Below are positions 2,508-28,280 of a stretch of DNA of 64,000 nt, piece after piece. The notes under the pieces are model-generated. The model was not told the origin of the DNA and did not search any database. It was given only the letters and a program-made list of their open reading frames with translations. The DNA comes from Candidatus Saccharimonadales bacterium. GTDB lineage: Bacteria; Patescibacteriota; Saccharimonadia; Saccharimonadales; UBA7683. The stretch covers positions 72,480 through 136,479 of the forward strand of contig JAXMAA010000001.1 of NCBI GenBank assembly GCA_046350615.1, written 5' to 3'. Each line of letters begins with the position of its first letter. Positions within the stretch are counted from its first letter, which is position 1. Position numbers and translations under genes: made by a program.

Positions 2508-3566
2508 TTAACGCAAGAACGGGTCGAGATCGCCATCGAGTATTTTTTGTGCATCTTTTACTTCGAACTTGCTGCGGGTATCTTTCACCAATGTGTACGG
2601 ATGCAGTACGTAGTTACGAATTTGGTTGCCCCATGCGGCCTCTTGGTTGGGGCCTTTGAGTTCCGATATTCTTTCGGCATGTTGCTCCATTTGCAGTTGC
2701 GCTAGTTTTGAACGCAGAATCTTCATGGCAACCTCTTTATTCTGTATTTGCGATTTCTCATTTTGAATTGAGACCACAATATTTGTGGGAATATGTGTAA
2801 TACGCACCGCCGAATCGGTTGTGTTCACGCTTTGGCCGCCGTGCCCAGACGAACGATAGGTGTCAATTCTTAAGTCTTTCTCGTCAATCTCAACTTCATC
2901 AGGTGTATCAATTTGCGGCAGAACCTCGACCATCGCAAAACTTGTTTGACGCAGATTATCTGCATTAAATGGGCTCAGTCTGACTAAACGATGTACGCCG
3001 TGTTCTCCCTGCAATTTACCGAAAGCATTGACACCGCTGATTGAAACTACCGCCGATTTTATCCCAGCTTCATCACCAGTCGATTCTTCCAAAAGCTCGG
3101 CTTTATAGCCCGCTTTCTCAGCCCATCTCAAATACATCCGCAGCAACATTGCTGCCCAGTCCATAGCATCCACTCCTCCGGCCCCAGCCTGTAATCTGAG
3201 TACCGCATCGTGACCATCATATGGACCGTTATATTTTAGCTCCTGCTGCAACTCCTTATATTTCTCAAAAACGTGCTTAGACTGCGCTTCGATATCACTT
3301 TTAAGTGATACGTCATCTAACTCCGCCAGCTCTCTGAGATCTGAGATCTGAGACCTGAGGTCTGCCCAAGGCTGAACCGCCGCAGAAAGTTTCGCTTGCT
3401 GCTTAGAAAAATCCTGCGCCTGCAAGTTATCTTTCCAAACATCCGGATCTTCCAATTGCTTCGTAAGAGACGAGAGCTTTTCTACTTTTTCTGCCAAGCC
3501 CGCCTCTTGCCAAGCCGCTTCAAACTCACTCTGTAAATTCGTGATCTGTTTTTTCAACTCCTGCAT
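2508..3566 (-). CDS. prfB: peptide chain release factor 2
   Basis: It has the GGQ motif (SGHGGQSVNTTDSAVRITHIPT) and the RF2-specific SPF tripeptide (RLSPFNADNLRQTSFA). The frame is continuous, with no internal frameshift site. Confidence 0.95.
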   Translation of the reverse strand: MQELKKQITNLQSEFEAAWQEAGLAEKVEKLSSLTKQLEDPDVWKDNLQAQDFSKQQAKLSAAVQPWADLRSQISDLRELAELDDVSLKSDIEAQSKHVFEKYKELQQELKYNGPYDGHDAVLRLQAGAGGVDAMDWAAMLLRMYLRWAEKAGYKAELLEESTGDEAGIKSAVVSISGVNAFGKLQGEHGVHRLVRLSPFNADNLRQTSFAMVEVLPQIDTPDEVEIDEKDLRIDTYRSSGHGGQSVNTTDSAVRITHIPTNIVVSIQNEKSQIQNKEVAMKILRSKLAQLQMEQHAERISELKGPNQEAAWGNQIRNYVLHPYTLVKDTRSKFEVKDAQKILDGDLDPFLR

Positions 3567-3583
3567 GCTGCTAGTATACAGCC

Positions 3584-4876
3584 TCAGCGAATAAGCTCAT
3601 ACGCCCAGGGTTGAGACCGACCAAGCTTTTGGTAATCAAACGAGCTTTCAGGAACCTCAAAAGATAGTTGATACTCAGAACTGCGTCTTTGTGCCATATG
3701 ATACGCCGTGCGAAGCTCCCCTGTTTCGCCAACACATTCAAATGGCTTCATAACACCGTCGATCCCCAGTAATCCCTTAAATGTTTCCGTAAGGCCTGGC
3801 TTTGCAAACAAATCCTGGCCGCCAAAGAGCATTCTAAGCTGCTCCGGTTCTATAAACGGCGCAAACAAAAGATAGCTATTGGCACATTTCGGGCAATCAC
3901 CACACCATTGAAGCTGGCTATTATCCGCGCCTTGCTGATAATTAGCTTGGTTACATGAGGAAAATGTGTGCCCAAATTGCTCCCAGGCATGCTTTGTGAA
4001 AAGCTCGGCAATTTTAAGTTCCGAAAAACCCCGTAGAGGCGAACCAATCTGCATATCCGCCGAAACATACCTCTGAACATATTCACTTAACAATTGCTCG
4101 GCCTGCCACGCTTTTGACCATTGGTGATTAACTGGCATCTGTCCAATATATTCATGCGGCTCCTCGCCCTCTTGGCCGATCGCTGCCAATACCATGTTCT
4201 GACCATGGAGAATGGCATCAATCAGCGCATACGCCTCTACTATGTACGTTACTGGAACATGTCCGTTGAGGCCGCCGTTTGCCTTTGCCTGCATAAGCGC
4301 ATCTCTATCAATGTTTCGCTGAATAGTACGAAGTGGTGTACCAAGTGTATCAAGAACCCGCGGGTGCGCCTGGCCAGAGGTAACATAGAGCGGTGTGAAA
4401 TCATGTTTCTTTTCACGAAGAAGTGTCGCCAGAAGTAGCGAATCTTTTCCGCCGCTTTGCAGAGCAACCGTACCAAGACCCTGATATGATGCCGCCGTGC
4501 GATGGACTCCTTCGCCTGCAAATACAGCTACATCCTCGAGTGCAAGATTGTTTTCAAACAAGAATTGGCTGAGACCTTCGGTGTATACTTTTTGCAAAAA
4601 CTGCGCCTGCCACAAATCTGGTTGGGCGTTCTTAAAAATCACTTTTTTGGTTGGGAAAGCTTTATAATACGATGCTCCCGCCACATAAAAAGCGAGTTTT
4701 AGTGCGCTTTCAAGCACTGCGCTACTTTGGCCAACTTGGCTTTGTTCGTCAAATACAGCGGTTTCAGAAAAATGTCTCTGGCCGTCAAAACTGTAATTAA
4801 ACCGGGCAGTATGTGTTGCCTCATCATAGCTGTATGATTCAAAAACAAACGCCACGTATCGCGATTGATAACTCAT
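3584..4876 (-). CDS. PP-loop (SGGKDS) ATP-pyrophosphatase-superfamily protein, translationally coupled to murD; candidate MurL-type UDP-MurNAc-L-Ala-L-Glu epimerase
   Basis: It carries the motif LQSGGKDSLLLATLL. Its start overlaps the murD stop (ATGA at 4873-4876). The C-terminal half is Cys-rich (SSCNQ...WCGDCPKCANSY). Confidence 0.5.
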   Translation of the reverse strand: MSYQSRYVAFVFESYSYDEATHTARFNYSFDGQRHFSETAVFDEQSQVGQSSAVLESALKLAFYVAGASYYKAFPTKKVIFKNAQPDLWQAQFLQKVYTEGLSQFLFENNLALEDVAVFAGEGVHRTAASYQGLGTVALQSGGKDSLLLATLLREKKHDFTPLYVTSGQAHPRVLDTLGTPLRTIQRNIDRDALMQAKANGGLNGHVPVTYIVEAYALIDAILHGQNMVLAAIGQEGEEPHEYIGQMPVNHQWSKAWQAEQLLSEYVQRYVSADMQIGSPLRGFSELKIAELFTKHAWEQFGHTFSSCNQANYQQGADNSQLQWCGDCPKCANSYLLFAPFIEPEQLRMLFGGQDLFAKPGLTETFKGLLGIDGVMKPFECVGETGELRTAYHMAQRRSSEYQLSFEVPESSFDYQKLGRSQPWAYELIR

Positions 4877-20688: not shown

Positions 20689-22677
20689 CTACTTCCAGAG
20701 TTGGAAATTTTTAGTAATTTCTTTGAGCTCATCTGATTTTCCGAACAACGCCAGTGCCCAGAAATCAACATCTTCAATAGCAGTTTTCTTGAGTAGTTCC
20801 ATCTCCTCTTTTGAAGAGCCGATGGTCATAGTTTCGACAAAGGCGTTGTTAGGTAAACTAAGTTTCTGGGCCTTTTTGTAAGCTTTTAGCAGCTCTTTGG
20901 AGTTCGCTGCTTTAAAAATAATGGCCGGATGATGTGCGATGATTACATCAAGCTCACCAGTTTTGTCTTGATATTCAAGAAAATCAAATCGACCGGGGTT
21001 ATGCATTGTACCCACCAGGCCCGCAACCGCATGATTGGCGGCGTTAATAAGCCTGCCGGTTTCAACGCCTTCTTTAAGAATTACCACCATCTGATAGGCT
21101 AGGCGATGCTCTTCGCTCATAAGCTCACTTGTTGGCGAAAGCGTATTTGGCCGGCGAGTGCTACCATGGCTTAACTGAACCTCTGGATAGATAGCTTTGG
21201 TAACCTCGTCAATCTCAGCTCTGAGCTGCGGGAATGGCACCCCTTCGCGTGCTGTTACACCTTCAAAAATCCAAAACACTCTTTCGGAAAAACCAAGTCC
21301 ACATGCAGGTGGCATACCGTATTCAAGCATTTCCACGTAGTCGATATCGAGCATTTGCGCCTCATCATCACCAGCATCGCGCATTTTTTGCTGTTCCAAG
21401 AAACGATTAAGCTGATCAACCGGGTCATTCAGCTCACTCCAACCGTTACATAGTTCGCTACCGCCAATGACTGCCTGAAATCGCTGCACAAAATGAGGGT
21501 TAGTATCATCCGCTTTACTGAGGGGAGAAATAAATGTTGGTGTGTTAATAAGCCAGACTGGACCAGCCACGGTTGCACGAACCCTCTTCCAGAGCTTATC
21601 AATACCGCGCGAAATATTCTCAGTTTTTTCTACTTCGAGCCCGTGCTTCTTCAGTGCGGCCTTCACTTCGTCGATTGTGCAGTCGAACACCTCGATACCG
21701 TAATGTTCGCGAATAACGGTCGCATAATCCCATCGCTCCCACGGTTTGCTCATATCAATTTCTTGGCCGTCGAGAGTAAACTGCAGAGTACCGAATGCTT
21801 CTTGCAGCACTTTTTTGAACATCTCCTCCATGAATACCATGCCATCTTGCCAGTCTGCATATGCCCAGTACCATTCCATTGCAATATGCTCCGGTAAATG
21901 TTCATCCGAGTAGTTCTCGTTTCGAAAACGTGGACCAATATCAAAGACTTTTTCATACCCAGCGCCAATCAAGCGCTTTAAGGGTAGCTCGTGTGAAATA
22001 CGAAGGTAAAAATCTTGATTCAAAGCGTCCATGTGCGTTACAAATGGATTCGCATCGGCGCCGCCGGTAGTATGCTCCAGCACTGGAATATTAATTTCCG
22101 TAAAATCATTGTTCAGAAGAAAATCGCGTGTTGCCTGCCAAAACTTTGAGCGTCGAATGAATCGTTGGCGAACATCTTCATTGACGTTCATGTCCACGTA
22201 GCGCCGACGCATGCGCTCCTCTTTATTCGTAAAGCCGTCTTGTGCTGTGGGCATTGGTCGAAGCGATTTAGTCAAAAGCCGCAAATTCTGCACATCAATT
22301 GAAATCTCACCAGTTTTGCTTTTTATAATTGGTCCTGTTGCCTCAATAAAATCACCTCCATCCAGAAGATTGAGATGCTCAAGTCCAATAAAGCCGGCCT
22401 GAGGATTTGTGGGCCGCACTCCGCCATCTTTCAAGAAGAGCTGTACCTGCCCTGATGCATCCTTCAAAACTATGAAGGCAAGTTTGCCAAACTTACGAAT
22501 GCCGATAATTCTGCCTGCAACCGTCGCTATTTGGTCTTCTAAGACATCAAACTTAGCAATAACGTCACCCATCATATGGGTTCGGTTCGATTTTGCGGGG
22601 TACGGGTTAAGGCCCAGCTTTTTTAGCTCTCCCAGTTTTCTTAGGCGCTCATCGCGCAGTTCTTTCAAGTTCGCCAT
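20689..22677 (-). CDS. lysS: lysine--tRNA ligase (class II) with a ~145-aa C-terminal DUF2000/PTH2-like extension
   Basis: The N-terminus has the OB anticodon-binding domain (VAGRIIGIRKFGKLAFIVLKDASGQVQLF) and the class II core (FRNE, GGSELCNGWSELNDP, GLGFSERV). About 145 extra residues follow. Confidence 0.9.
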   Translation of the reverse strand: MANLKELRDERLRKLGELKKLGLNPYPAKSNRTHMMGDVIAKFDVLEDQIATVAGRIIGIRKFGKLAFIVLKDASGQVQLFLKDGGVRPTNPQAGFIGLEHLNLLDGGDFIEATGPIIKSKTGEISIDVQNLRLLTKSLRPMPTAQDGFTNKEERMRRRYVDMNVNEDVRQRFIRRSKFWQATRDFLLNNDFTEINIPVLEHTTGGADANPFVTHMDALNQDFYLRISHELPLKRLIGAGYEKVFDIGPRFRNENYSDEHLPEHIAMEWYWAYADWQDGMVFMEEMFKKVLQEAFGTLQFTLDGQEIDMSKPWERWDYATVIREHYGIEVFDCTIDEVKAALKKHGLEVEKTENISRGIDKLWKRVRATVAGPVWLINTPTFISPLSKADDTNPHFVQRFQAVIGGSELCNGWSELNDPVDQLNRFLEQQKMRDAGDDEAQMLDIDYVEMLEYGMPPACGLGFSERVFWIFEGVTAREGVPFPQLRAEIDEVTKAIYPEVQLSHGSTRRPNTLSPTSELMSEEHRLAYQMVVILKEGVETGRLINAANHAVAGLVGTMHNPGRFDFLEYQDKTGELDVIIAHHPAIIFKAANSKELLKAYKKAQKLSLPNNAFVETMTIGSSKEEMELLKKTAIEDVDFWALALFGKSDELKEITKNFQLWK

Positions 22678-22683
22678 ATAGTC

Positions 22684-23121
22684 CTATTCTACCACTGTTC
22701 TGATGAAATCAGAAAGTCCAATGAATACACCAAGATGCATGTGAGTTGGTTCTTCGCGAGGCATAACATGGCCAAGAATATCCCACTTAGTCCACGACCC
22801 TTCACCAAAGTGCGCATGCAAACAATCATATGTATCATACGCAAATTTCCTCATTTCATGGTTATTGGAGCCAACATCACCAACACCAGCAACAACAGGC
22901 CCTGGTAACCGAAATGGGAAATCAACAGTGCTATCCAAAAGCGGCATAGCCTCATTTTCAACAATAAACTCCCCGACTCTATAAAGCTTACTGAGTGGTG
23001 ATGTAACTGCTTCGAGCATTGCAGACCTAATTGCTTCATCGCGTTGCATAGAAACGGGTATTCCCCTTTTTACAGCGCCAGGATTCGGCGGCAATACAAT
23101 CACGTGTTCAATATTTTTCAT
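22684..23121 (-). CDS. hypothetical protein (145 aa from MKNIEHV)
   Basis: From the ORF track; I prefer the ATG at 23121. No family is recognised. A C-terminal HMHLG resembles a degenerate HIT-like motif, but I do not rely on it. Confidence 0.5.
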   Translation of the reverse strand: MKNIEHVIVLPPNPGAVKRGIPVSMQRDEAIRSAMLEAVTSPLSKLYRVGEFIVENEAMPLLDSTVDFPFRLPGPVVAGVGDVGSNNHEMRKFAYDTYDCLHAHFGEGSWTKWDILGHVMPREEPTHMHLGVFIGLSDFIRTVVE

Positions 23122-23176
23122 GTCATTATTCAATCTATAATTCAGTAGCAAAGCTGAGCTACCCTCGCTTCACAAA

Positions 23177-23213
23177 CTCCCCTTAACTACAGTCCGGCAC
23201 GGGGATGACAAGG
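23177..23213. repeat. degenerate member of the ...GGGRATGACAA hairpin repeat family
   Basis: The sequence is CTCCCCttaactacagtccggcacGGGGATGACAAGG, which has the same stem plus ATGACAA tail seen at 31398, 53838 and 61582. Confidence 0.4.
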
Positions 23214-23236
23214 TGGGGGTAGTTCAGATAGCAGAG

Positions 23237-24349
23237 TTAATTATCTGAAGAGCGGGATGAGATTAGGTTAAGAAATGTTTCGTAACCACATACGAGATTC
23301 TCAAGCGATGTCACACTAACCCACTCATCCGCAGTATGGGCATTCCCGCCTTCTGGCCCCCAGGTGATGACTGGCAAACCTAGGCTTGCGAGTACATTAT
23401 CGTCACCGACGCTCTTTCGTTCAATATAAGTAACCGGCTCATTATATACTTGCCTGATAGTCTGCTCAAGAACGTCTTGATACGGGAATGTAGAGTTGTG
23501 ATAACCAGGCAGGTAAGGAGTTTTACGCGGTGCGACGACTACATGAGCATTACTGCCAGCAAGCTGCTGAAGCTTTGCTTGTATGCCCTCAATACCCTCA
23601 CCATACGCAGCCAGAACCTCAACTTGACAAGAGGCAGCCTCAGGAACACTCATACCAACAACCTCACTCTGCACCGAACGTATCTGCGCCGTAGAACCAT
23701 GCGCGTCAAACATTTCATGACGAGTGGTATAGAAACTTCCCAAAAATTTTTGCATTCGCTCAATAGCATCCACGCCATCTTGGTAATTGGCGAGATGTGC
23801 ACTTTTACCCTGAAAAACGACATCGAACAAAAACCGCCCCGTTCTACCAATAGTTATATGTGAAGATCCACCCACCAAACTTGGCTCAGCAGACACAACC
23901 AAGCTGACATCTTGAAAGAACTGTTCGTTGTTTCCGGCTGCGTACCACGCTCCTTCGGAGGCCTCCTCCTCATCAACCGCCAAAAATACCTTTACGTATG
24001 CCGTCGTATGGCGAGTCGCTTCTAAAAACGCCGCTATTCCACCTTTCATATCGAATGCGCCTAGTCCGTACAGCCTCCCATTTTCGCAGCGAAGCTCAAG
24101 TGGATCACCACCCCAACCTTGAGCTGGTGCTACCGTATCTTGATGTCCGTAAAATAGTATCGCTTTGCTTTTTGGGTGATCGTTTTTAACAGCATACAAA
24201 TTACTTCGCCCTTCAGAAACCTCTTGAACTTCAACCGAAAAACCCGAATCTTCTAGTAACTTTTTGAAGAGTGGCGTTATCGCCCGCTCGCTGCCAGTAC
24301 GTGAATCAGCTGCCACTAATTTGGTGAGGTTATTAAGAATATTGTTCAT
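23237..24349 (-). CDS. M20 family metallopeptidase (ArgE/DapE/ACY1-like)
   Basis: Supporting motifs are ILFYGHQDTVAP, GAFDMKGGIAAFL and AVDEEEASEGA. Confidence 0.8.
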   Translation of the reverse strand: MNNILNNLTKLVAADSRTGSERAITPLFKKLLEDSGFSVEVQEVSEGRSNLYAVKNDHPKSKAILFYGHQDTVAPAQGWGGDPLELRCENGRLYGLGAFDMKGGIAAFLEATRHTTAYVKVFLAVDEEEASEGAWYAAGNNEQFFQDVSLVVSAEPSLVGGSSHITIGRTGRFLFDVVFQGKSAHLANYQDGVDAIERMQKFLGSFYTTRHEMFDAHGSTAQIRSVQSEVVGMSVPEAASCQVEVLAAYGEGIEGIQAKLQQLAGSNAHVVVAPRKTPYLPGYHNSTFPYQDVLEQTIRQVYNEPVTYIERKSVGDDNVLASLGLPVITWGPEGGNAHTADEWVSVTSLENLVCGYETFLNLISSRSSDN

Positions 24350-24357
24350 ACACTCCT

Positions 24358-25323
24358 CTATCTTATCGCACGTGTCACTTTAAATGTTGGAAAAAGATTG
24401 CGTATTTCACCAGAGATTGGCACAACTGATCGTAAAATGCCCTCAATCCCCAGCAACCCAGCATTGTGAGCGGCTTGCCGAGCCGAGCGTCTGCCGCTTC
24501 TTTTAGCAGCCGCGTGCACACCAACATCAGAGCCATTACATTCACCAAAAATAACATCGGCACCATCTTTTTCGGCCATCACAACAACTGCAGCCGCACA
24601 CATACCATAATAGCCTTTGCCACGGTGGTCGGGGTGCGTTGCTGCCTCGGTAACCTCTGCGAACCGTAGGTCACCAATAGATCCAACCTGAACCTGCGTT
24701 CGATAATAAGCCGCAACCGAGGCTATGATGCCACCGGCACGCAATACTATTAACTGCATACGCGGATCCTCCAGCATCTCATCAACCGTCTCAAGATCCA
24801 TGCCAAAGGTCGGCTCATACAACTCATGTAGTTGCTGCCTGTCCTGATCAGTCGGTTCATCCAATACTTCAAGCTCTTCGGTCTCGAAAAGATCACGAGA
24901 GATCGTATTCTGCTGCGCCCGCCAAATACCATCAATAACACCCGTTTCGGGCGCCATAGCAAGCGCTCGCCTCGAATCTGTCGCGCTGCCCAAATATGCT
25001 ATCCATAGGTGGTCTTGGGGGTTGACACCTTCTGGGCAGAGAGGATATGCAGCCTCTACAAGCTGCCCTGTATTATGATGTTCTTCCAAATACCCTGCTA
25101 GTGCACTAAACGGCGTGATAATTCGCATACTAACTTTCTCGGTATCCGGCAAGCCCAGTGCTTCTTCCACAATTCCTTCGCCGAGTATTTCAATAGATTC
25201 GGGCTGTTCCACCACCAACGGATAAAATGCTTTACGCCGAGCATCACTCGCCACCGACGGCGGGAATGACTCCTCCGCCGTCGGCCGAACGCCACTCGGC
25301 AACCATAATTCACTTTTACTCAT
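24358..25323 (-). CDS. hypothetical protein with a C-terminal GNAT acetyltransferase-like domain
   Basis: The segment FAEVTEAATHPDHRGKGYYGMCAAAVVVMAEKDGADVIFGECN fits GNAT motif A. The N-terminal ~190 aa are unassigned. Confidence 0.55.
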   Translation of the reverse strand: MSKSELWLPSGVRPTAEESFPPSVASDARRKAFYPLVVEQPESIEILGEGIVEEALGLPDTEKVSMRIITPFSALAGYLEEHHNTGQLVEAAYPLCPEGVNPQDHLWIAYLGSATDSRRALAMAPETGVIDGIWRAQQNTISRDLFETEELEVLDEPTDQDRQQLHELYEPTFGMDLETVDEMLEDPRMQLIVLRAGGIIASVAAYYRTQVQVGSIGDLRFAEVTEAATHPDHRGKGYYGMCAAAVVVMAEKDGADVIFGECNGSDVGVHAAAKRSGRRSARQAAHNAGLLGIEGILRSVVPISGEIRNLFPTFKVTRAIR

Positions 25324-25363
25324 ACTTTCCCTCTTTTATCAAAAGTTTAGAAACTTTTGCTTT

Positions 25364-25849
25364 CTAGCTTTCGTCTCCAATCGAAACCCGATCGATATCA
25401 ACAACATTTCGAAGCGTAATCACGGCTCCACTCGTTAATCCTTCAGGCGCAATCTGCCAAGTAGCCTCAGGACGCTGCCTTGTGTTGCCAAAAATTGGGT
25501 CGTCTGTCTCGATTGTTGTTACGTCAATATATAGTCTTTCCGGCCCATCCGCCAAACCATAATCTCCTTCTGGCAGTAACGTTATGCCACGTGGCGCCTC
25601 CTGTTGGCCTGCGCCATCCAGACAAGTTACGTCAACACTAGCTACAGCTCGACGCCTACCTTGCGTAGAACCAATAACTGCAACCCCTGTGTCTTCTGGA
25701 CACTCCACACCCATAGTGAATTGGTTAGAAACTTCTCTAGATTCACCACAACCTGCGAGCCCCATCCAGGCAAGAAACGCCATTCCTATTACTCCAAGAG
25801 TACGATTGCGACGTGCTCTATTTGGATATTGTCTTTGTAAATTTTCCAT
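25364..25849 (-). CDS. putative lipoprotein
   Basis: The signal peptide carries a lipobox: TLGVIGMAFLAWMGLAGC. Confidence 0.7.
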   Translation of the reverse strand: MENLQRQYPNRARRNRTLGVIGMAFLAWMGLAGCGESREVSNQFTMGVECPEDTGVAVIGSTQGRRRAVASVDVTCLDGAGQQEAPRGITLLPEGDYGLADGPERLYIDVTTIETDDPIFGNTRQRPEATWQIAPEGLTSGAVITLRNVVDIDRVSIGDES

Positions 25850-26067: not shown

Positions 26068-26096
26068 ATTGTATACCTATTTTATATTATTGTCAA
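26068..26096 (-). promoter_or_regulatory. sigma-70 promoter TTGACA-17-TACAAT reading toward the lipoprotein gene cluster
   Basis: The minus strand reads TTGACAataatataaaataggtaTACAAT. It overlaps the 3' end of the TrmB-like gene. Confidence 0.55.
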
Positions 26097-26871
26097 CAAC
26101 TTTTGCTTGTTGCCAAATTGATTCAAATTGAGCCTGAAATAGGCGTACGGCAAATGCTTGATTTAATACGAGGCTGAGGCGATCTACTGTATTAGCAGGA
26201 TCACTGAAAGTTATCATAGCGGCTAAACCATCAATAATAGTTATGTGAAAGCCGCGCTCTTCTCTGTAATGCCGCACTGAAACCCCGAGCCTTTGCCACT
26301 TACTCACAATGTGGTAGTTCGCCGGCTGTAGCTCTTGCACCACATGCCGAATGTAAACGCCACGCGCTATCGCCTCTCGTTGCACGTGGTGCAAATCATC
26401 TGAAAATGCGATTCCGATCGCAAAGACATCTATTGTTTTTTGTGCCTGATGAGCCAACTTCATATACTCACGATACATCGACTCCCGACCCACAATCAGC
26501 CGTGCACCACCCGTATCTGTAGTACCCGTAAGATCACCGCCAATCGCCCGGCCAAGCAGCCCCGCCAGATCATGTACATGAGTGCTGTAAGCAGCCCTCA
26601 AGCCATTCTCCCGAGCAATTACTTCGTAACGGATCGGCCGCTTCGCCACAAACCGAATAAGGTTCTTCTCCTCGAGTGCCTCAAACATCCGATATACTGC
26701 ATTCGGAAACACCATTAGCTGCCCCGCTACATCTTGTGCACTCATTGGGCATCTCTTTGCTGCCATCACCGTATATAGCTGCAGTTCATGATCACTCAGC
26801 CCAAGCAACCGTAAATACTCCAGCACTTCATCTGGCAACTCAGGAACATATATTGATTGAGCTGTGCGCAT
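26077..26871 (-). CDS. TrmB-family transcriptional regulator
   Basis: It has an N-terminal wHTH (LEYLRLLGLSDHELQLYTVMAAKRCPMSAQDVAGQLMVFPNAVYRMFEALEEKNLIRFV) and the C-terminal effector-type domain length expected for TrmB. Confidence 0.75.
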   Translation of the reverse strand: MRTAQSIYVPELPDEVLEYLRLLGLSDHELQLYTVMAAKRCPMSAQDVAGQLMVFPNAVYRMFEALEEKNLIRFVAKRPIRYEVIARENGLRAAYSTHVHDLAGLLGRAIGGDLTGTTDTGGARLIVGRESMYREYMKLAHQAQKTIDVFAIGIAFSDDLHHVQREAIARGVYIRHVVQELQPANYHIVSKWQRLGVSVRHYREERGFHITIIDGLAAMITFSDPANTVDRLSLVLNQAFAVRLFQAQFESIWQQAKVVDNNIK

Positions 26872-26981
26872 AATTACATTTTAACATATTTTTGTTAAAA
26901 CATATTAAAAAATTATTCGTATATTTACACAAATTTTATATGCTGAGTGTAGAGGTTTAGCACCTCAAAGGAGTTACGATT

Positions 26982-27068
26982 ATGAAAAACGTACAAGATA
27001 TATCCCCTACCGTTGACGAAACCGTTTCAAGAAACTTCGAAAGCATTGATATAACCTACAATGACTAA
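26982..27068 (+). CDS. 28-codon small ORF (MKNVQDISPTVDETVSRNFESIDITYND) with a strong SD
   Basis: It is not in the track because it is under 60 aa. AAAGGAG lies 7 nt upstream of the ATG. It sits 93 nt upstream of the CysK-like gene on the same strand. Confidence 0.4.
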   Translation: MKNVQDISPTVDETVSRNFESIDITYND

Positions 27069-27161
27069 CCCGCCCGCAAAGGGTTTATACAGCCCGGCAC
27101 CCAACTTGAGGGCTACACTACTCAATCACCTAAAGTAGTCCTTGCAACTGATGGTGCGCTT

Positions 27162-28280
27162 TTGCTCGATGGCAAAACCATTAAGGTGGGGCAGCTTTTT
27201 AACCTACCGACCCACCAATCCATGAGGTTAGAGACTGGTCACGAAGGCTTTCGCTATATCTCCAGAAAAGTCGCCCCAGAAGCAGCTCAAGACGGTGAAT
27301 CACGTTTGGCACGGCTCGCAGCTAGCGGAATTGGAGATGCGGCCTGGTGGCAGCTTCCCCGGGAAGAACAATTTACGCGGCTTGAAGCAATAATTGGCTA
27401 TACGCCCCTTGAGCGTATCCAGCTTGATACTGGCCTCAGCGTGATGACCAAAATGGAGCACCAGAATCCTTCAGGTTCGCACTATGACCGTGCCTACTTT
27501 GCCACCATCAAGCACTTTGAAGAGATTGGGTTCATTCAACCTGGCGATGAACTACGTGACATTACCTCGGGCAGTGCTGGCATCTCACTAGCATTAATAA
27601 GCCAGCTTCTTGGGTATAAATCGCGTATTATCGTCCCGGCCGAACTACCAGCCAATCGCCTTTACCCTATGCTGCAGTTTGGCGCACAACTCGTTAGTTC
27701 AGGTGAAGGCTACGTGCCCCACGCCAGTATTGTTCAAACAAATGAAATCTTGGGCTTTAGGGAAGATCCCGAATGGCAAGAGACTCGCCCAGCCGACAGG
27801 AGCGGCCGTGCCCTGACTTTTGAAAAAGACGGCGTAAGAATCTGCCACCTTAATCACTCCAAAAATGAACTCTCTCCAGCCTCGTTCGCACCAATCGCTA
27901 GTGAAATACTCGATGATACTCCAGATATCAGCCATATAGTACTTGCTGAAGGAAATTGGACCACCATATCCGGCATTGCGAAAAGGCTTCGTATGCTCAA
28001 ACCATCCGTACACATAACCGGATACTCGGGTGAGTTCACTGATGGCAAAACCGAAAACTACGGAACCAATGTGCCAGATGTTCCTCTGCGTTTTAAAGAT
28101 CTGGAGTTGCTCGATGCCGATGTAATTGTTAGCTCGAAAGATCGTGATGCAATGCGGTGCTATGCTCCGCATCTCGGCCGGAGTTCACTAATGGGGCTAG
28201 CTGTCGCAGAAAGTATACTCAGAAATAACCCAAACGCAAATGTTGTTACGCTAGGCTATGATACAGCTGAAAGATACTAA
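27162..28280 (+). CDS. fold-type II PLP-enzyme (cysteine synthase/CBS-like) homologue lacking the Schiff-base lysine
   Basis: The segment GYTPLERI...KMEHQNPSGSHYDRAYF...ITSGSAGISLALISQLLGYKSRIIVP aligns to the CysK block xxTPL...KxExxNPxGSxKDR...TSGNTGIALA. Tyr108 (27483-27485) occupies the lysine position. The start codon is uncertain (TTG at 27162). Confidence 0.65.
   Translation: MLDGKTIKVGQLFNLPTHQSMRLETGHEGFRYISRKVAPEAAQDGESRLARLAASGIGDAAWWQLPREEQFTRLEAIIGYTPLERIQLDTGLSVMTKMEHQNPSGSHYDRAYFATIKHFEEIGFIQPGDELRDITSGSAGISLALISQLLGYKSRIIVPAELPANRLYPMLQFGAQLVSSGEGYVPHASIVQTNEILGFREDPEWQETRPADRSGRALTFEKDGVRICHLNHSKNELSPASFAPIASEILDDTPDISHIVLAEGNWTTISGIAKRLRMLKPSVHITGYSGEFTDGKTENYGTNVPDVPLRFKDLELLDADVIVSSKDRDAMRCYAPHLGRSSLMGLAVAESILRNNPNANVVTLGYDTAERY

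Follow-up and report, generated by a model that had tools for sequence, protein, structure and literature searches.

A conserved cassette of a TrmBL2-like regulator and a lysine-less CysM-fold protein in Saccharibacteria, with a probably broken target gene in one genome

Closest Described Systems

The locus described here lies in a 64-kb window, i.e., the whole stretch of 64,000 nucleotides that was analysed (positions 72,480 to 136,479 of contig JAXMAA010000001.1, assembly GCA_046350615.1), which was taken from the metagenome-assembled genome (MAG) of a Candidatus Saccharimonadales bacterium. It consists of a gene for a regulator of the TrmB family and a divergently oriented gene for a protein with the fold of the cysteine synthase CysM, in which the lysine that forms the Schiff base with pyridoxal phosphate (PLP) is replaced by tyrosine. 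Together with a palindrome located between them, both genes quite probably constitute a conserved regulator-operator-target cassette, the target gene of which is broken in the window genome. In the following, the protein is referred to as PALP-like after its Pfam domain, and as a member of the S-H-Y-D-R clade after the motif that surrounds the exchanged residue.

The best match of the PALP-like protein, in sequence as well as in structure, is CysM (2bhs of E. coli and 2jc3 of Salmonella), with a Foldseek template modelling score of 0.81 on the target. The N-P-x-G-S-x-x-D-R block, the T-S-G-x-x-G loop and the start of the G-x-S-S helix can be aligned between the two proteins. The PALP-like protein differs from CysM at several sites: the Schiff-base Lys is exchanged for Tyr, the Asn of the T-S-G-N-T-G loop for Ser, G-T-G-G-T for G-N-W-T-T and Q-F for N-H-S. 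It further contains an insertion of around 40 residues (residues 255-290), and the long forms of the protein possess an additional N-terminal beta domain.

A regulatory function of a protein with this fold is known from Bacillus subtilis. CysK binds to the repressor CymR and stabilises it on the DNA, as stated in a passage of PMC4961446 that refers to Tanous 2008; according to the same passage, metabolite sensing is thereby supplied by a CysK-fold protein. The window locus is similar in that a CysM-fold gene is genomically locked to a regulator without an effector subdomain. The B. subtilis system differs from the window pair, however, in that CysK has full activity as a PLP enzyme, CymR belongs to the Rrf2 type and not to the TrmB type, and the two genes are not divergently arranged. 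CysK and CymR form a physical complex, whereas the window pair is known from its genes alone. Loss of the lysine has been described for the N-terminal module of C. elegans CBS-1, a lysine-less fold-type II module which was shown to be non-catalytic and not to bind PLP (PMC3316156). As in the S-H-Y-D-R proteins, the PLP lysine of this module is replaced and the Gly loop is degenerate. The CBS-1 module is, however, a eukaryotic intramolecular domain with a Lys-to-Glu exchange and a structural role, whereas the S-H-Y-D-R proteins are stand-alone and prokaryotic, occur in several phyla and show an invariant His-Tyr pair and strongly conserved cleft residues.

The regulator resembles the archaeal proteins TrmBL2 (5bpi) and TrmB (3qph): its helix-turn-helix (HTH) domain scores above the Pfam cut-off, and its whole fold and its length of 264 amino acids match TrmBL2. 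The operators of TrmB and TrmBL1 are palindromic, as is the presumed operator in the window. The window regulator differs in being bacterial (Patescibacteria) and in lacking both the sugar-binding subdomain and any association with sugar genes. It also adjoins a specific conserved palindrome, whereas TrmBL2 acts as a chromatin protein without sequence specificity. A further layout, in which a sensor partner is combined with an activator, is known from NifL-NifA. A comparable order is found in Marinimicrobia, where the gene for a homologue of the PALP-like protein immediately precedes, in the same predicted operon, that for an AAA+ activator of the sigma-54 type without a recognisable sensor domain. 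However, the partner is not a NifL homologue, and the likeness, which is an analogy only, does not apply to the Saccharibacteria locus.

The Lysine-Less S-H-Y-D-R Clade

The PALP-like protein matches the Pfam family PALP (PF00291) with 98.2 bits (E value 7e-28, cut-off 35). In a phmmer comparison with E. coli CysM (2bhs; E value 9e-20), its sequence NPSGSHYDRA stands column for column on NPAGSVKDRA, and Tyr168 aligns with Lys41 of CysM, which is the Schiff-base lysine. The same alignment places AEGNWTTISG at the position of the CysM phosphate loop MGTTGTITG; the window protein thus has G-N-W-T-T where canonical enzymes have the phosphate-binding loop G-T-G-G-T. Both observations bear out what the first-pass annotation of this DNA, which was made from the letters alone, had read from the sequence, namely a fold-type II PLP homologue without the Schiff-base lysine and with a degenerate phosphate loop. 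A register shift to a nearby lysine was considered and rejected, as the only invariant lysine, K157, aligns with a non-catalytic lysine of CysM, and K177 is not conserved. The Asn of the T-S-G-N-T-G loop, which contacts O3' of PLP, is a Ser in the window protein (T-S-G-S-A-G), while some members of the wider clade retain it. The Ser that contacts the pyridine nitrogen in CysM (G-V-S-S) has its aligned counterpart in the Ser of G-R-S-S.

The closest homologue of the window gene product, P0001, is 96% identical, intact and 432 amino acids long. The top Foldseek matches of its AlphaFold2 (AF2) model, which has a predicted local distance difference test (pLDDT) score of 94.4, are the CysM structures 2jc3 and 2bhs (E value 2e-21). 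The best relatives in the PDB are canonical CysM, CysK and CBS proteins with 21-27% identity, and no solved structure of a clade member was found among the PDB matches.

The replacement of the lysine extends far beyond the window. Among about 200 relatives aligned with hmmalign, the Schiff-base column contains Tyr in 188 sequences, preceded by His in 185 of them, and Lys in 10. H167, Y168, R170, the S196-G-S-x-G loop, N291-H292-S293 and G324 are invariant in an alignment of 44 sequences; in N-H-S, the His takes the position of the Gln of the canonical substrate loop. At the position of the phosphate loop, the family carries GNWT (63 sequences), GNG[ST] (85 sequences) or GNFT, whereas GTGG is present in Lys-bearing sequences only. 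The latter are exactly those that have G-T-G-G and Q-F instead of G-N-x-x and N-H-S; the canonical relative P0064, for example, reads LGQFDN at the columns of the Y-L-N-H-S-E-N signature. In a crude neighbour-joining tree, nine Lys-bearing sequences form their own clade apart from the 179 others. A profile search against 1.84 billion cluster representatives returned 405 matches at an E value of 1e-30 or below, and members are present in Saccharibacteria, Altimarinota, Fidelibacterota/Marinimicrobia, a Dormibacteraceae MAG and an archaeal MAG. The clade comprises at least a hundred clusters at 50% identity. These alignments make it a robust reading that the exchange of Lys for Tyr is a conserved, family-wide trait of a large clade and not a local loss.

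None of the NCBIfam models is specific to the clade, and the window protein stays far below the equivalog cut-offs of the related models (score/cut-off of 93.2/413 for CysM, 89.1/344 for cysKM and 76.3/351 for CysK). A literature search revealed neither a description of a lysine-less cysteine-synthase-like family nor of a link to TrmB in Saccharibacteria. As far as the databases and the literature searched show, the S-H-Y-D-R clade is undescribed.

The Regulator and Its Putative Operator

The divergent TrmB-family gene reported by the first-pass annotation was found on the minus strand, with a match of its product to the Pfam family TrmB (PF01978) of 37.4 bits (E value 2.3e-9, cut-off 25.6). 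The AF2 model of the regulator (pLDDT 91.5) has TrmBL2 as its top Foldseek match (5bpi/5bpd, E value 2.5e-15), followed by TrmB (3qph) and nucleases of the PLD fold. Its architecture comprises a winged HTH, a long helix and a PLD-like subdomain, for which weak matches to PLDc_2 and DUF7436 were obtained. The C-terminal sugar-binding subdomain is absent from the regulator, as it is from its best structural match, TrmBL2.

A phmmer analysis of the fetched loci revealed that the regulator gene is located directly upstream of, and divergent from, the PALP-like gene in every Saccharibacteria locus with enough flanking sequence (the window, L001-L007 and L009-L014). The pairing holds down to 39% identity of the PALP-like protein, and homologues of both proteins repeatedly occur on shared contigs. 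The divergent arrangement recurs in the Altimarinota chromosome L023, between a TrmB-family gene (Pfam E value 2.3e-14) and the gene for an S-H-Y-D-R protein with 30% identity. The gene order supports the view that the PALP-like protein and the TrmB-type regulator would form a conserved functional pair. The first-pass annotation had suggested a module of three components, of which the pair of regulator and PALP-like gene is retained in relatives and the small open reading frame (sORF) as a third gene is not. One locus weighs against a tight coupling: in L028, the regulator and an operator-like site are retained, whereas the place of the PALP-like gene is taken by an unrelated gene for a protein of 173 amino acids. 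The regulator does therefore not strictly need the PALP-like gene.

The L028 locus (3375-4765) contains a degenerate operator, TTTTAATA-N6-TGTTAAAA, and its 173-amino-acid open reading frame has no Pfam match; a relationship of this product to the N-terminal beta domain of the long PALP-like proteins was considered, and the two are unrelated. In L029 (1744-4798), a transposase of the rve family is inserted between the PALP-like gene and the regulator gene, and a transposase-like open reading frame of 358 amino acids is located directly upstream of the PALP-like gene in L015 (18-1094). Mobile elements thus disrupt the cassette in other lineages.

The intergenic region between both genes of the window comprises 110 bp and contains an inverted repeat of two fully (100%) complementary 8-nt arms, TTTTAACA-N6-TGTTAAAA. 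This palindrome is unique in the window even if two mismatches are allowed (0.04 occurrences expected). It occupies the corresponding position in L002, L004, L005, L011, L012, L013 and L014, and does so with a single G-to-A change in the right arm in L001, L010 and L009; the intergenic sequence downstream of it diverges between relatives. The inverted repeat noticed in the first pass is thus present and conserved, with arms of eight nucleotides and a spacer of six. The direct repeat AACATATT, which had been pointed out at 26883 and 26899, is also present but not distinctive: it occurs seven times in the window compared to 2.6 expected occurrences, and its second copy is not conserved. As it is neither rare nor conserved, it was rejected as a regulatory element.

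The palindrome is likely to be the operator of the regulator, to judge from its conservation and its position. Binding of the regulator to the palindrome, which overlaps both divergent promoters in the proposed arrangement, would result in autoregulation and in control of the PALP-like gene. Only 7 nt separate the palindrome from the start codon of the regulator gene; this points to a leader that is very short or missing, and to autoregulation. A scan of the control region for sigma-70 promoters yielded a single weak match on the minus strand over the regulator ATG, which does not surpass those in shuffled sequences.

Sensor or Enzyme

A protein without the Schiff-base lysine would be unable to form the internal aldimine, and the PALP-like protein would rather bind an amino-acid-like ligand in its remodelled cleft. 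It would thus act as a binding or regulatory protein and, less likely, as a PLP-independent enzyme. A further hint at its role comes from five loci of Marinimicrobia/Fidelibacterota, in which the gene for a 321-amino-acid homologue (motifs NPSGSHYDRV, CLNHSQ and VGNGTS) is followed after 4-10 nt by a gene for a sigma-54-interaction-domain protein of 665-670 amino acids and then by a gene for a sodium:solute symporter. Neither a known N-terminal sensor domain nor a C-terminal HTH was detected in the sigma-54-type activator. Judged by its gene order, this predicted operon is a second, independent link of the clade to a transcription factor. Because of this operon and the precedents of CysK-CymR and the CBS-1 module, a non-PLP ligand-binding or regulatory role seems slightly favoured over new catalysis.

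The Marinimicrobia operons are those of the loci L017, L019, L020, L022 and L024 (e.g., L024 6001-10547), and the symporter belongs to the SSF family. The AAA+ domain of the sigma-54-type protein is split by an insert of around 100 amino acids, and a FadL-like outer-membrane gene is divergent from the operon.

The opposite possibility is that the S-H-Y-D-R proteins are true enzymes, which would either use non-covalently bound PLP in the form of an external aldimine or catalyse a new, possibly metal-dependent His/Tyr chemistry; the TrmB-like protein would then be the local repressor of an inducible catabolic or salvage gene. This deserves serious consideration, even if it falls short of being probable. 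Several points speak for it, and the first three of them also weigh against a sensor. The invariant His-Tyr and Asn-His-Ser residues, together with the Ser at the pyridine-nitrogen position, line the former active site and would also suit catalysis. The distant members P0063 and P0091 carry an NADP oxidoreductase domain (PF03807, ProC/F420-oxidoreductase-like) fused to their C-terminus, which hints at an enzymatic role in this subgroup, and L028 indicates that the regulator is able to act on another cargo gene. Furthermore, K-to-A mutants of related enzymes keep some PLP as external aldimine (PMC3316156). Members of the wider clade may bind PLP, or some other phosphorylated ligand, non-covalently, because their loop is still rich in Gly (G-N-G-S/T) and could hold a phosphate, and because the Asn of the T-S-G-N loop is often kept. 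In the Saccharibacteria subgroup, by contrast, such binding appears unlikely, because a Trp is present in the phosphate loop and a Ser replaces the O3'-binding Asn. Saccharibacteria also lack a conserved metabolic neighbour: the flanking genes (GreA, ProRS and LysRS-DUF2000) are housekeeping genes that give no hint at a pathway, and the contexts of the distant members P0052, P0056, P0060 and P0065 are short or uninformative. We know of no PLP enzyme that works without the Schiff-base lysine.

For the clade as a whole, with its members in Patescibacteria, Marinimicrobia/Fidelibacterota, Dormibacteria-like bacteria and some archaea, a tentative and rather doubtful proposal can be made from the sequences. 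Its proteins may be dedicated small-molecule sensor subunits for transcription factors that have no ligand domain of their own, or may perform PLP-independent His/Tyr catalysis. As sensors, they may be partnered by TrmBL2-like repressors in the Patescibacteria and by sigma-54 activators in the Marinimicrobia.

The 28-Codon Reading Frame and the State of the Window Gene

The first-pass annotation had described a 28-codon sORF with the Shine-Dalgarno (SD) sequence AAAGGAG, located 93 nt upstream of a 372-amino-acid PALP open reading frame, as a gene for an independent small peptide. All of these elements are present at the reported positions (Table 1), and the sORF encodes MKNVQDISPTVDETVSRNFESIDITYND. 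Translation of the whole region from its start codon to the end of the PALP frame yields, however, 432 codons with one internal stop. At this position, P0001 reads ESIDITYNDEPARKGFIQPG, compared to ESIDITYND*PARKGFIQPG in the window. A DNA alignment with the corresponding locus L001 revealed that codon 29 is GAA in the relative and TAA in the window, which is a difference of one base (T/G). Intact 432-amino-acid versions with 94-96% identity to the window gene are known (P0001, P0067 and P0068); besides P0001 itself, its 90% cluster holds two intact 432-amino-acid versions, and the GTDB species representative L010 carries one. The Glu at codon 29 is kept in P0001-P0004, of which the distant long forms P0002-P0004 comprise 438-442 amino acids, and all long-form relatives, with protein lengths of 432-449 amino acids, have a Glu at the position of the stop. 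The AAAGGAG sequence is conserved ahead of the long-form start codon in L001, L010, L014, L002 and L011. No relative was found in which a stop follows codon 28, and the sORF with a start and stop of its own is not conserved.

Since the sORF is in frame with the PALP open reading frame, and since relatives read GAA at its stop, it is not a separate gene. An alternative code in which TAA is a sense codon can be ruled out: the neighbouring genes are intact long open reading frames, and the TAA at codon 29 is a true stop in the window because the gene itself ends with TAA (28278-28280). The encoded peptide does not show the signature of an independently selected product either. In comparison to two close relatives, the ratio of nonsynonymous to synonymous substitution rates (dN/dS) of codons 1-28 is 1.19 and 0.67, values that are derived from small counts (nine nonsynonymous and two synonymous changes), whereas it is 0.14-0.16 for codons 101-432 in the same comparisons. 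The AF2 model of P0001 shows a disordered stretch (residues 1-12) ahead of an all-beta domain (residues 13-96), inside which the stop is located; the peptide thus corresponds to a poorly conserved tail and the first strands of this domain. The N-terminal domain is present only in long-form orthologues, and most orthologues (346-371 amino acids) do without it. With respect to the identity of the domain, only weak matches to Cupin_2 and Ppnp were obtained, and these for a single orthologue (P0014). The sORF does not represent a peptide gene but the 5' end of the PALP-like gene, which the stop has severed. The cassette can accordingly be described, with good but incomplete confidence, as one of two genes, encoding the regulator and the lysine-less CysM-fold protein, and not of three.

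In the proposed course of events, codon 29 would have mutated from GAA to TAA, leaving a 28-codon stub and a long downstream open reading frame without a ribosome-binding site. With moderate confidence, the window copy is most likely a recent pseudogene. The copy has 16 private amino-acid changes, and seven changes fall within its first 13 codons. Two of the private changes, Y289H and E294K, affect positions of the C-Y-L-N-H-S-E-N signature that are invariant in 20 Saccharibacteria orthologues. The ratio of synonymous to nonsynonymous codon changes that are private to the lineage is 12:16 in the window, compared to 10:7 and 26:17 in two relatives. Several findings do not fit a pseudogene well. 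The gene contains no frameshifts, codons 101-432 retain the low dN/dS mentioned above, the remaining 352 amino acids correspond to the length of natural short-form orthologues, and NCBI annotates this remainder as a gene; moreover, the stop may be an error in the consensus of the MAG.

The truncation could alternatively be tolerated. Translation would then restart at TTG 27162 or ATG 27222, resulting in a protein of 352-372 amino acids that resembles the natural short forms, and the cassette would be functional. The existence of natural orthologues of 346-371 amino acids without the N-terminal domain and the low dN/dS of the PALP part are in line with this, as is the protein of 352 amino acids called by NCBI (MFO0970833.1, cluster member P0066), which starts at ATG 27222. 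This ATG was created by a window-specific Ile-to-Met change (I81M). However, inspection of the sequence revealed no SD ahead of either start codon, and ATG 27222 is located 154 nt past the stop, which is too far for translational coupling. The restart product would begin within the beta domain, at the strand formed by residues 81-96 in the AF2 model, and the two invariant motif residues would still be altered. A tolerated truncation is thus considered unlikely.

It is less probable still that the TAA stems from an error in the assembly or its consensus, or from a minority allele of the MAG, and that the organism possesses an intact 432-amino-acid gene. The single-base difference to GAA, the origin of the sequence from an NCBI MAG of Candidatus Saccharimonadales and the absence of frameshifts from the remainder of the gene would be compatible with such an error. 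However, substitution errors in consensus assemblies are rare, and the other unusual changes in the same copy (Y289H, E294K and the seven changes in codons 1-13) are consistent with constraint having genuinely relaxed. The model of the first-pass annotation, in which an independent 28-amino-acid peptide, a lysine-less (pseudo)enzyme acting on or with it and the TrmB regulator form a three-component module, can draw on the strong SD and ATG of the 28-codon frame and on its position ahead of the PALP frame and divergent from the regulator, but is highly improbable, as the same SD and ATG serve the full-length gene in relatives, none of which stops after codon 28, codons 1-28 evolve with a dN/dS of around 1 and most orthologues lack the whole N-terminal region.

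Features of the Locus and Its Neighbourhood

The features of the locus are summarised in Table 1. In the complete 64-kb window, a scan with Rfam returned no family at the gathering score, and ARAGORN detected no tRNA gene.

Table 1. Positions of the genes, motifs and presumed control elements of the cassette in the window.
Feature	Position	Strand	Remark
TrmBL2-like regulator, 264 aa	26077-26871	-	Pfam TrmB; exact match to NCBI MFO0970832.1
Palindrome TTTTAACA-N6-TGTTAAAA, probable operator	26879-26900	.	Arms and position conserved
Shine-Dalgarno sequence AAAGGAG of the full-length gene	26967-26973	+	8 nt before ATG
432-codon frame of the lysine-less CysM-fold protein (beta domain, then PALP fold), stopped at codon 29	26982-28280	+	
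Reported sORF (codons 1-28 and premature stop)	26982-27068	+	In frame with PALP ORF
N-terminal all-beta domain, residues 13-96, possibly cupin-like	27018-27269	+	DSSP on AF2 model
Premature stop TAA, codon 29 of 432	27066-27068	+	GAA (Glu) in relatives
372-aa PALP ORF	27162-28280	+	93 nt downstream of sORF
352-aa ORF, NCBI call MFO0970833.1	27222-28280	+	ATG is Ile in close relatives; no SD ahead
S-H-Y-D-R motif	27477-27491	+	Tyr168 (27483-27485) at position of Schiff-base lysine
Signature (C)Y-L-N-H-S-E-N, in window H-L-N-H-S-K-N	27846-27866	+	Aligns with Q-F-x-N substrate loop of canonical enzymes
G-N-W-T-T loop	27951-27965	+	At place of G-T-G-G-T phosphate-binding loop

Beside the regulator gene, the window contains a block of four minus-strand genes (22684-25849) without a counterpart in L010, a relative with 92-95% identity. 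They encode a 155-amino-acid open reading frame, an M20 ArgE/DapE-like deacylase (23237-24349), a GNAT-domain protein (24358-25323) and a lipoprotein-like open reading frame of 161 amino acids (25364-25849). Other relatives have an amino-acid-kinase gene at this site, and the block is thus a variable insertion beside the regulator gene. The adjacent minus-strand gene (20689-22677) encodes a class II aminoacyl-tRNA synthetase of the Lys/Asp/Asn type with a C-terminal DUF2000 fusion (662 amino acids). This fusion is kept in L002 and L005, while L004, L009 and L028 have versions of around 505 amino acids without it. Two relatives among the Saccharibacteria carry heliorhodopsin genes (L005 5795-6601; L009 453-1436) at a distance of a few kb from the cassette.

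Implications

For annotation, the locus illustrates that one nonsense codon can mimic a small open reading frame with a downstream gene, and the NCBI call of a 352-amino-acid "pyridoxal-phosphate dependent enzyme" hides a truncated gene. The object of interest is, however, the family and not the window copy. The family is maintained by purifying selection in organisms with minimal genomes. Across the clade, the universally required Schiff-base lysine is replaced by an invariant Tyr that is preceded by His, and the clade shows at least two unrelated kinds of connection to transcription regulators. If its members are enzymes, they would represent a PLP fold that works without the PLP lysine. If they are sensors, they would extend the CysK-CymR idea to dedicated pseudoenzyme partners and could reveal a metabolite that is monitored by the epibiotic Saccharibacteria.

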